DNA of 64,000 bases from Ructibacterium sp. (GTDB taxonomy: Bacteria; Bacillota; Clostridia; Monoglobales; Monoglobaceae), in the NCBI GenBank assembly GCA_045534975.1, contig JAZSKV010000054.1, forward strand, positions 2,200-66,199. The letters run 5' to 3'. The first letter of the stretch is position 1, and every line of letters starts with the position of its first letter. Of the stretch, positions 10,147-24,112 are shown one piece after another. Below the pieces are notes generated by a model. It had not been told where the DNA came from, did no database searches, and worked only from the letters and a program-made list of their open reading frames with translations. The position numbers and the translations under genes are program-made.

Positions 10147-10560
10147 TTATTCAGCAGGAGTTGCCTCACCTGCATCAGATGCAGATGCAGCCTCAGCCGC
10201 TGCCTGCTGCTCTGCGACTTCTTCCGCGGTAAGCAGAATATTACCAGCGCCATCTACCAGATTGCCTTTTTCATCAAGAGTTGCCTGAATTTCCTCACCG
10301 GTTGCCGGATTCTCTGCGTTGTAGGTATTTACTGCAACAGCAGCCAATGCCAAAGAAGAAATAATAAACAGGATTGCAACCACAGCGGTAACTTTCTTTA
10401 AAACTGCATCAATGGTTTTACCCTTGTTCTTACCAAAGAAAGTTTCTGCACCGCCGGCAATAGCACCGGACAACCCCTGTTGTTTACCGTGCTGCATCAA
10501 AACTGCCAGAACCAGCACCAAAGAAATAACGACATGAATAATGGTTAATGTTAACATCAT
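10147..10560 (-). CDS. secG: Preprotein translocase subunit SecG with an acidic C-terminal extension
   Basis: VLMQHGKQQGLSGAIAGGAETFFGKNKGKTIDAVLKKVT SecG signature. Confidence 0.9.
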   Translation of the reverse strand: MMLTLTIIHVVISLVLVLAVLMQHGKQQGLSGAIAGGAETFFGKNKGKTIDAVLKKVTAVVAILFIISSLALAAVAVNTYNAENPATGEEIQATLDEKGNLVDGAGNILLTAEEVAEQQAAAEAASASDAGEATPAE

Positions 10561-10703
10561 TTTGAAAATTTCCTCCTTATGTTGTGTGCAGGAATCTGCA
10601 CATCTTTCATCGTTTCAAAATCAATCGTCATTCATTGTATCACAATCCAGATAACATTTCAAGTGGTTTTTCGAAATTTATCAAACTTTTTCCAAAAACT
10701 TTT

Positions 10704-10779
10704 TAAAGAAAAGAAGACCACTTAGGGGAGCGGTCTTCAAGGGAGGGAGTTATGTATTTGCAACAATTTCTTGCTGCAT
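10704..10779 (-). ncRNA. Candidate small regulatory RNA (~75 nt)
   Basis: Extended -10 TGcTATACT (10792-10784); 5' hairpin UGCAGCAA-GAAA-UUGUUGCA; C-rich linker ACUCCCUCCC; terminator GAAGACCGCU-CCCCUA-AGUGGUCUUC-UUUUCUUU. Confidence 0.6.
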
Positions 10780-10809
10780 TTTTAGTATAGCAAACTCCCC
10801 CTAAGATGG

Positions 10810-10848
10810 GGTGAATTTTTTATGAAAGATATATGAATAGTTTATGAA
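10810..10848 (-). promoter_or_regulatory. Four direct repeats at 11-bp period (OmpR/PhoB-type binding array)
   Basis: Plus-strand GGTGAA 10810, TATGAA 10821, 10832 and 10843, i.e. TTCATA-N5-TTCATA-N5-TTCATA-N5-TTCACC on the minus strand. Confidence 0.7.
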
Positions 10849-11021
10849 CGCCAAAAAACTGTTTTTTCGGCATTTTGTATACAAAAATTCACTTCTCAAA
10901 AAAATTTTTAGGAAAAACCCTTGATTTTTTCATTACAGTAGTTTAAAATTGTAATATCTGTAATATAAATTTAATATGGTGTTTCATGACCAGATTAAAT
11001 TTTTAAGTAGGAGATGGAACC

Positions 11022-11612
11022 TTGCTTTATTACAGAGAAAAAACAAAGTCTAAGACATATCCCCTGTTGGTTGGGAAAAGTATTGCCTTGCTTGGTGTGA
11101 CCGTTTTATCGATTTTTCTTTTTTCTGGGTCATCTGTCCGGACAAACATGGATGCCACAGCTACCATGCGACAATCTCCGAAAGGCCTTTCTCCATTACC
11201 GGAAACAACACCGGTTCCCACTGAGGATCCTACCTTGGCACATGGTTTTTTTACCGAACCGGCTGTTGGTGTTTTAACCTCTGATTTTGGAGCACGTTGG
11301 GGACGGGAACACACCGGCATCGACATTGGTGCCGACCACGGAGCGGATATTCTGGCAGCAGACGGAGGCGTCGTTCTTCTTTCCGGTTGGGTTGATGGTT
11401 ATGGAAATTATATCATTCTCGACCACGAAAACGGTTTCCAGACCGGGTATGCCCATTGCAACGAACTTCTTGTCACAGATGGAGAACGGGTCTCGCAGGG
11501 CCAAAAAATTGCTTATGTTGGCAATACCGGCAACAGTACCGGTCCCCATCTTCATTTTGAAGTAAAATTAGACGGCGTTTTTCAAAACCCCTTAAACTAT
11601 GTAATGTACTAA
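11022..11612 (+). CDS. M23 family metallopeptidase (cell-wall endopeptidase) with an N-terminal TM/signal segment
   Basis: HTGID and HLHF zinc motifs, YAHC; TTG start behind AGGAG; promoter TTGATT-17-TAAAAT at 10921-10949. Confidence 0.9.
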   Translation: MLYYREKTKSKTYPLLVGKSIALLGVTVLSIFLFSGSSVRTNMDATATMRQSPKGLSPLPETTPVPTEDPTLAHGFFTEPAVGVLTSDFGARWGREHTGIDIGADHGADILAADGGVVLLSGWVDGYGNYIILDHENGFQTGYAHCNELLVTDGERVSQGQKIAYVGNTGNSTGPHLHFEVKLDGVFQNPLNYVMY

Positions 11613-11650: not shown

Positions 11651-12343
11651 ATGAGTAAAAAAATCCTTGTGGTGGACGATGAAAAAAGTATTGTAGATAT
11701 CCTGAAGTTGAATTTACAAAACGAGGGTTACACCGTCTACGAGGCTTATGATGGCGAAGAGGCGATCATGAAAGCCAATGCCATTGAACCTGATCTGATT
11801 TTATTGGATGTCATGCTTCCCAAATTGGACGGTTTTTCTGTCTGTAAAAAAATCCGGGAGACTTCTTCCGTTCCGATCTTGATGCTGACTGCCCGTGAAG
11901 AAGAGGTGGACAAGGTTCTGGGTCTGGAACTGGGCGCAGATGACTACATCACCAAGCCTTTCAGCGTTCGGGAGTTGATGGCGAGAATCAAAGCCAATAT
12001 GCGTCGTCTGGAACAAGAAGCAGCACCGCAGACCGGCAATTCTGACATTGTCAAAGTAGGTTGTTTCACCTTAGATTGTAACCGCTATGAACTCTATAAG
12101 AACGAACAATTGATTGATTTAACGGTACGGGAATTTGAACTGATTAAGTTCTTATCGGCACAACCCAATAAAATTTATTCCCGTAAGGCACTTTTAGAAT
12201 ATGTTTGGGACTATGAGTACTATGGCGATGTTCGGACTGTTGACGTTACCGTTCGTCGTGTCCGGGAAAAGATCGAGGATGACCCCTCGCAACCTCAGCA
12301 CATTATGACCAAACGCGGTGTCGGCTACTACTTCGCTCTGTAA
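11651..12343 (+). CDS. walR: OmpR-family response regulator, WalR/YycF-like
   Basis: KKILVVDDEK, LLDVMLP, KPFS, and the WalR-like C-terminus YGDVRTVDVTVRRVREKIEDDPS..TKRGVGYY. Confidence 0.8.
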   Translation: MSKKILVVDDEKSIVDILKLNLQNEGYTVYEAYDGEEAIMKANAIEPDLILLDVMLPKLDGFSVCKKIRETSSVPILMLTAREEEVDKVLGLELGADDYITKPFSVRELMARIKANMRRLEQEAAPQTGNSDIVKVGCFTLDCNRYELYKNEQLIDLTVREFELIKFLSAQPNKIYSRKALLEYVWDYEYYGDVRTVDVTVRRVREKIEDDPSQPQHIMTKRGVGYYFAL

Positions 12344-23921: not shown

Positions 23922-24112
23922 GCATCCCTGCTATGTTTGTAAACAGAGGTTACAATGTAAAACCAACAATTTTACGAAGGGGCCTTGTCTCCAAAAGCGG
24001 CGCACATGCCTCATGCTTTATGCATCCAGTGGACTTGTAATGTTTTTGGGCGTTTCCCCACCTGGATTCCAGGTTTTTACAAAACCTCATGCTACGGCAC
24101 GGCGGGGTTTTT
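23922..24112 (+). ncRNA. ssrS: 6S RNA
   Basis: ~190-nt self-complementary rod (CCCUGC/GCGGGG, GAGGUU/AACCUC, UGUAAAACC/GGUUUUUACA) with a central bubble; CCCACCUG..GGUU and ACGGCAC motifs recalled from Bacillota 6S; promoter TTGTAT..TGcTATAAT at 23876-23903. Confidence 0.82.

Follow-up and report, generated by a model that had tools for sequence, protein, structure and literature searches.

Organisation of the locus

The window analysed in this study is a stretch of 64,000 nucleotides of DNA from Ructibacterium sp. (contig JAZSKV010000054.1). On its minus strand, between secG and an operon that encodes an M23 peptidase and a WalR/YycF-like response regulator, lies a compact unit made up of an array of four hexamers, an extended -10 element, a hairpin, an unpaired stretch and an intrinsic terminator (Table 1). 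All the features of this unit listed in the first-pass annotation were recovered, each at its position, on reading the minus strand, and with high probability the segment 10848-10705 holds a genuine gene, absent from the catalogues, that encodes a small RNA (sRNA) of about 70-74 nucleotides.

Table 1. Features of the probable sRNA gene in the window, and the unlinked regulator-kinase locus
Feature	Position	Strand	Basis or remark
Hexamer array, TTCATA x3 + TTCACC, exact 11-bp period	10848-10810	minus	direct sequence reading
TTCATA hexamers	10848-10843, 10837-10832, 10826-10821	minus	sequence
Fourth hexamer, TTCACC	10815-10810	minus	sequence
Extended -10, TGcTATACT	10792-10784	minus	sequence, sigma-70 scan; TGnTAtAcT kept in alignments
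5' hairpin, 8 bp, GAAA loop	10778-10759	minus	fold
Unpaired region, predicted seed, contains ACUCCCUCCC	10758-10739	minus	unpaired in MFE fold and in consensus structure
Anti-start-codon CAU	10754-10752	minus	sequence
Anti-Shine-Dalgarno CUCCCUCCC	10749-10741	minus	sequence
Intrinsic terminator with U tract, total	10738-10705	minus	fold and terminator scan
Terminator stem, 10 bp, loop CCCCUA	10738-10713	minus	fold
Terminator tract UUUUCUUU	10712-10705	minus	sequence
Regulator-kinase pair directly upstream of htrA	C99:7538-9718		on another contig, unlinked to the sRNA gene; membrane histidine kinase

The 5' end of the RNA would lie at about 10778/10777, 6-7 nucleotides past the -10 element. The predicted fold has a minimum free energy (MFE) of -24.9 kcal/mol (z = -6.1), and none of 200 shuffled sequences folded as well. 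When one mismatch is allowed, the four-hexamer pattern has a single match in the window and none in 100 dinucleotide shuffles. Similarly, three-hexamer arrays counted over the 1.32-Mb genome number seven at a period of 11 bp, against 1, 1, 1 and 0 at periods of 9, 10, 12 and 13 bp respectively. The sigma-70 scan of the window did not call a -35/-10 pair at the sRNA promoter, and since TTCACC sits 20 nucleotides upstream of TATACT, this promoter is regarded as having no usable -35 element. A run of G residues in the promoter spacer is not kept in relatives and is specific to this genome. As for the 5' hairpin, which had been described as closed by a GAAA tetraloop, the hairpin itself is conserved, but the GAAA loop is peculiar to this genome.

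The flanking genes show some features of their own. The SecG reading frame (10147-10560, minus strand) encodes 137 amino acids with the SecG domain limited to residues 5-74, and therefore continues at its C-terminal end for about 60 residues beyond the domain, which is unusual. On the other side of the sRNA gene, the plus-strand segment 11022-12888 holds the orphan WalR/YycF-like regulator, with the M23 peptidase upstream, rlmH downstream and no adjacent kinase. Just past the predicted promoter of the M23-regulator operon (10921-10949), a direct repeat GTAATAT-CT-GTAATAT with a 9-bp period (10951-10966, plus strand) looks like an operator.

Conservation and distribution of the sRNA

BLAST searches of 60 related genomes detected the unit in 17 of the 23 genomes of the same genus, at 74-81 % identity and sometimes as tandem pairs. 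In the alignment the similarity starts exactly at the first hexamer and stops at the U tract, and the promoter spacer and the hairpin loop are variable. A covariance model built for the sRNA, R1, was used for family-wide searches and for searches of the wider Clostridia. It identified the sRNA in 60 of 120 genomes of the same GTDB family, spread over 13 of 14 genera (12 besides that of the window), with two to three copies per genome in two genera. None of the 22 genomes examined from the largest sister family and none of 145 sampled genomes from other families of Clostridia matched R1, and elsewhere in the order only two borderline matches were obtained. A BLAST search of the window's own genome found no paralogues of the sRNA, which is single copy here, against up to three copies in relatives. 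An exact-word scan of named genomes placed the sRNA in Ructibacterium and in rumen and gut MAGs, with 8 of the 36 matches attributable to chance. The cultured Ructibacterium gallinarum DSM 107454 carries two copies, in tandem. The genus Ructibacterium is placed in Oscillospiraceae by NCBI.

Across 32 aligned RNAs the core ACATAACT-CCTCCC does not change except at the position marked by the dash, where at least 90 % have C and the others A, and the letters on either side of the core hardly vary. The CCCC of the terminator loop is retained in 30 of these 32 sequences. RNAalifold recovered two helices in which 11 of 15 pairs show compensatory changes (4 of 6 in helix 1 and 7 of 9 in helix 2). With the structure held fixed, 95.8 % of the cells are paired compared with 82.3 % in shuffles, double-change cells number 77 compared with 24.8 in shuffles, and the covariation score is 0.529, compared with at most 0.167 for controls with slid partners. 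Conservation of both the repeats and the hairpins, on which the first-pass annotation had made its proposal depend, was found. The independence of the sRNA, also proposed there, agrees with the limits of conservation, which are the promoter and the terminator, with the covariation of both helices and with the orientation of the gene, which may be either way with respect to secG.

The sRNA gene keeps the secG intergenic region across genera and is inverted in one subclade; the arrangement is tandem in the window and in loci L017, L022, L024 and L032, and divergent in L019, L021, L023, L026-L030, L033, L036 and L037. That the gene is kept beside secG in either orientation hints at a functional tie to the Sec translocon. 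The unit could also be envisaged as a 5' leader or attenuator acting in cis on secG, and not as an RNA in its own right, given the adjacency kept across genera and the tandem position immediately ahead of secG in the window and four relatives. However, the two genes are divergent in most relatives, other genera included, secG has a conserved promoter of its own, TTGaaa-17-TGTGATACAAT, in the interval from the terminator to the secG start codon, and the fold offers no alternative antiterminator pairing. The secG leader is therefore a highly improbable explanation and is largely refuted by these observations.

The unpaired core of the independent sRNA reads 5'-CAU-AA-CUCCCUCCC-3'. The complementary sequence, GGGAGGGAG-UU-AUG, has the form of an idealised ribosome-binding site followed by a start codon, and it is for this reason that the plus strand resembles a mini-gene. 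The good Shine-Dalgarno sequence and ATG on that strand had led to a 12-codon peptide (GGAGG, ATG 10752) being put forward as the alternative functional product. In 24 homologues, however, the antisense frame ranges from 3 to 26 codons with only Met-Tyr-Leu in common, a tripeptide that merely reflects the complement of the invariant RNA core, and the indels in the hairpins are not multiples of three. The frame is unconserved and is a mirror image of the anti-AUG/anti-Shine-Dalgarno core, and we attach practically no likelihood to the peptide.

Relationship to known RNA families

At gathering score no Rfam family covers the sRNA, and relaxing the search to E-values up to 10 in the region 10500-11100 yielded chance-level matches only. 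The csRNA model (RF02379) aligned to the sRNA with 19.9 bits (E = 4.9), far from its gathering score of 57 bits, so that neither sequence nor structure places the sRNA in this family.

The layout is nevertheless that of a csRNA. The csRNAs of Streptococcus possess two hairpins with anti-Shine-Dalgarno and anti-AUG motifs, and a direct repeat for the regulator replaces the -35 element of their promoters (PMC3091779). In the present sRNA, as had been suggested from its csRNA-like architecture, the two hairpins lie one on each side of an unpaired stretch with CAU followed by the anti-Shine-Dalgarno sequence. A good -10 element is likewise preceded by a direct repeat with an 11-bp period in place of the -35, and in both cases some lineages carry multiple copies per genome. 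The CiaR box, NTTAAG-N5-TTTAAG, lies 10 bp upstream of the -10 (PMC3091779), whereas the sRNA promoter has four TTCAYA hexamers ending 19-20 bp before it, and the host is a clostridial family and not Streptococcus. Because the csRNA model fails and the box differs, we take the sRNA, from its sequence, to be a new family of a design already known from Streptococcus and Listeria.

The LhrC RNAs are LisRK-dependent, induced by envelope stress and equipped with UCCC motifs, and it is through such C-rich UCCC motifs, in linkers or loops, that LhrC, RsaE and other RNAs pair (PMC4132741). LhrC1-5 of Listeria monocytogenes differ from the present sRNA in having three UCCC sites in about 110 nucleotides, and the LhrC model of Rfam was absent among the matches at E-values up to 10 in 10500-11100. 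We know of no consensus for the LisR binding site.

RoxS/RsaE likewise use C-rich motifs, and a phosphate or redox sRNA of this kind under a Pho-type or ResD-type box would be another way to read the promoter. The B. subtilis PhoP box is TT[ATC]ACA x4, and the TTCACA consensus, 11-bp period and four copies found here are close to PhoP core sites and to the ResD half-site; we take the box to resemble the PhoP or CssR-type repeats of B. subtilis as well. However, the RsaE/RoxS model (RF01820) produced no match at E-values up to 10, and the only PhoU-domain gene has no array. The box occurs at htrA, at exporter genes of the HlyD family and at a kinase operon, and not at phosphate or respiration genes or in a regulon of the ResD/SrrA type. 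A phosphate or redox sRNA is thus very unlikely.

The promoter array and its candidate regulators

Four TT[C/A/T]A[C/T]A hexamers with an 11-bp period are present in all 40 distinct homologous promoters, and in each of them the last hexamer (TTCACC) lies 19-20 bp before TGnTAtAcT. These promoters include those of divergent paralogues from another genus. Direct hexamers repeated every 11 bp at a fixed distance to the -10, with no -35, are the hallmarks of an OmpR/PhoB-type promoter, and the response-regulator-type promoter of the original proposal is supported by this evidence. Two dimers of an OmpR/PhoB-type response regulator are presumed to occupy the array.

Only two OmpR-type regulators are encoded in the genome. 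Besides the neighbour of the sRNA gene, there is one which forms a single operon with a HAMP-HisKA kinase, with the protease gene htrA directly after. The only other histidine kinase found, of 598 amino acids and WalK-sized, lies unlinked on a different contig (C14:13857-15653, minus strand). The gap between the operon's kinase gene and htrA contains TTAACC, TTTACA, TTCATA and TTCATA, then 9 nucleotides and then TATAAT, and the register of this array relative to the -10 is that of the sRNA array. Of 24 genomes of the genus, 21 have an htrA array following the kinase gene. The operon of the regulator and kinase is itself preceded, in about 14 relatives, by TTYACA-N5-TTCATA, with 19-21 nucleotides to an extended -10, and a box with the geometry of the sRNA promoter at this position suggests autoregulation.

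A search of 24 genomes with the geometry pattern gave 87 matches compared with 8 for a reversed control, and most of the matches belong to four recurrent promoter classes, namely those of the sRNA, the regulator operon, htrA and an HlyD-family gene. In the window's own genome, where the members of the regulon were named using Pfam and NCBIfam, looser arrays occur before two HlyD-family exporter genes, one of which heads a MacB-type ABC operon. One array there precedes an HlyD-ABC-MacB/FtsX-SLH operon and a weaker one precedes a small alarmone synthetase gene. Since the box type is shared by htrA and the regulator operon, the box was assigned to the htrA-linked regulator, which within our best explanation is the likely activator of the sRNA. 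The kinase occurs throughout the family, even in the genera that lack the sRNA, and co-occurrence of kinase and sRNA is therefore uninformative.

An alternative that retains the same sRNA would have it activated by the adjacent WalR/YycF-like orphan regulator (11651-12343), as an sRNA of cell-wall homeostasis. About half of the relatives have the sRNA gene next to the operon of the M23 peptidase and this regulator, and the regulator itself reaches 318 bits with the YycF model. The genus also has a conserved class of promoters with TTAACA-N5-TTAACA, and some of the sRNA arrays start with TTAACA. The WalR box, TGTWAH-N5-TGTWAH, reads TTWACA on the opposite strand with an equal 11-bp period; WalR boxes are thus one position apart from the hexamers described here, and the assignment to the htrA-linked regulator is for that reason not exclusive. 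Nevertheless, position 3 of the dominant hexamer is a C, a letter disallowed by W, and many genomes retain the array but have lost the linkage to the WalR-like regulator. A TTYACA/TTCATA box is moreover found on both sides of the locus of the other regulator, at its own promoter and at htrA. The first-pass annotation had cautioned that the regulator may not be the neighbouring WalR, and the same box type flanking the unlinked regulator-kinase-htrA locus makes this the likelier case; activation by the adjacent regulator appears unlikely.

Among the observations that count against the overall reading, of which the assignment to the htrA-linked regulator is part, is that this genome and its nearest relative do not have the box at the regulator-kinase operon and have a constitutive consensus promoter instead. 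Comparison of C99:7440-7537 with loci L179-L196 showed that in these two genomes the box promoter has been swapped for TTGACA-17-TATAAT. As this promoter matches the consensus perfectly, it implies that the stress system of the small 1.32-Mb genome is expressed constitutively.

At C94:16193-16235 (plus strand) TTAACA-N5-TTAACA was found 20 nucleotides before TGnTATAAT, upstream of an HlyD-family gene, an arrangement seen in about 18 genomes of the genus. On the opposite strand this conserved box reads TGTTAA-N5-TGTTAA, a canonical WalR-type box. The two OmpR-type regulators may share or split the regulon of the HlyD box.

Predicted mode of action and targets

In the mechanism that we propose, a phosphorylated OmpR/PhoB-type regulator would bind the four TTCAYA hexamers, which lie one helical turn apart, as two tandem dimers. 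Its binding would substitute for the missing -35 at the extended -10 promoter and would lead to transcription of the sRNA. The order and spacing of CAU and CUCCCUCCC would fit pairing with a Shine-Dalgarno sequence and AUG, and the sRNA may thereby pair with the translation-initiation regions of target mRNAs and block ribosome binding. The C-rich loop of the terminator is a possible second pairing site. As the box is common to htrA, the regulator operon and the HlyD-family exporters, the sRNA may be regarded as the RNA arm of their regulon, which would make it the post-transcriptional arm of an envelope or secretion-stress response. Taken as a whole, the locus is with good probability the gene of a regulator-activated, trans-acting sRNA that blocks ribosome-binding sites within an envelope/secretion-stress regulon.

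Duplex-energy target prediction over all start sites did not discriminate the seed from shuffled seeds (1st percentile of -21.3, compared with -18.6 to -20.2 for the latter). Genes with signal peptides made up 28 % of the predicted targets compared with 17 %, a difference which is not significant (p = 0.09). Two individual candidates were considered and rejected. The best single site, at the start of an OPT oligopeptide transporter gene, has a 12-nucleotide perfect complement over its Shine-Dalgarno sequence and AUG, but this complement is kept only in the three closest genomes (G000, G012 and G017) and not in the other sRNA-bearing ones, so that it was discarded as a conserved target. Feedback on the regulator mRNA was similarly considered, where GGAGGGAG occurs in the 5' UTR only in G000 and G017, that is, in this genome and its nearest relative.

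Comparison with known stress systems

In Streptococcus one regulator, CiaR, serves both the csRNAs and htrA, the latter being reported as a CiaR target (PMC10197876). The corresponding arrangement in the present genome is suggested by the box that the sRNA and htrA share. In our reading the circuit would be analogous to CiaRH-csRNA and LisRK-LhrC, an envelope-stress system that controls htrA being combined with anti-Shine-Dalgarno RNAs. We suggest, tentatively and with slightly less than even confidence, that an anti-Shine-Dalgarno sRNA wired to an HtrA-linked stress system is a recurrent, independently evolved Gram-positive design, represented by CiaRH-csRNA, LisRK-LhrC and the system of Ructibacterium.

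HssR and HitR respond to heme or envelope stress and work through a direct repeat in the promoters of ABC exporters (PMC3968170). These systems, HssRS and HitRS of Staphylococcus and Bacillus anthracis, share with the present one the use of OmpR-type regulators on direct repeats at ABC exporters, given that exporter genes here have related arrays, including the one at the head of the MacB-type ABC operon. They differ in that the kinase pair here is linked to htrA and not to a transporter. The HssR repeat is GTTCATATT-N2-GTTCATATT, and we take its hexamer and period to be equal to those of the sRNA array. To our knowledge no sRNA belongs to the HssRS or HitRS regulons.

The regulatory RNAs of uncultured gut and rumen Clostridia are almost uncharted. 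The present analysis provides a well-defined sRNA family, described by a covariance model and spanning about 60 genomes, as well as a reconstructed predicted regulon in which the sRNA is joined by the regulator-kinase pair, htrA and exporter genes of the HlyD family. It also provides a candidate DNA box for the regulator, and Ructibacterium gallinarum DSM 107454 is available as a cultured host for testing. An extra lineage is added to the pattern in which a stress system controlling HtrA possesses an RNA arm as well; systems of this kind are already known, and the gain is one of breadth and annotation and not of a new principle.

The window also contains a gene for 6S/SsrS RNA (23922-24112, plus strand), detected with 65.5 bits against a gathering score of 46.4, and this is the sole Rfam match at gathering score within the window.
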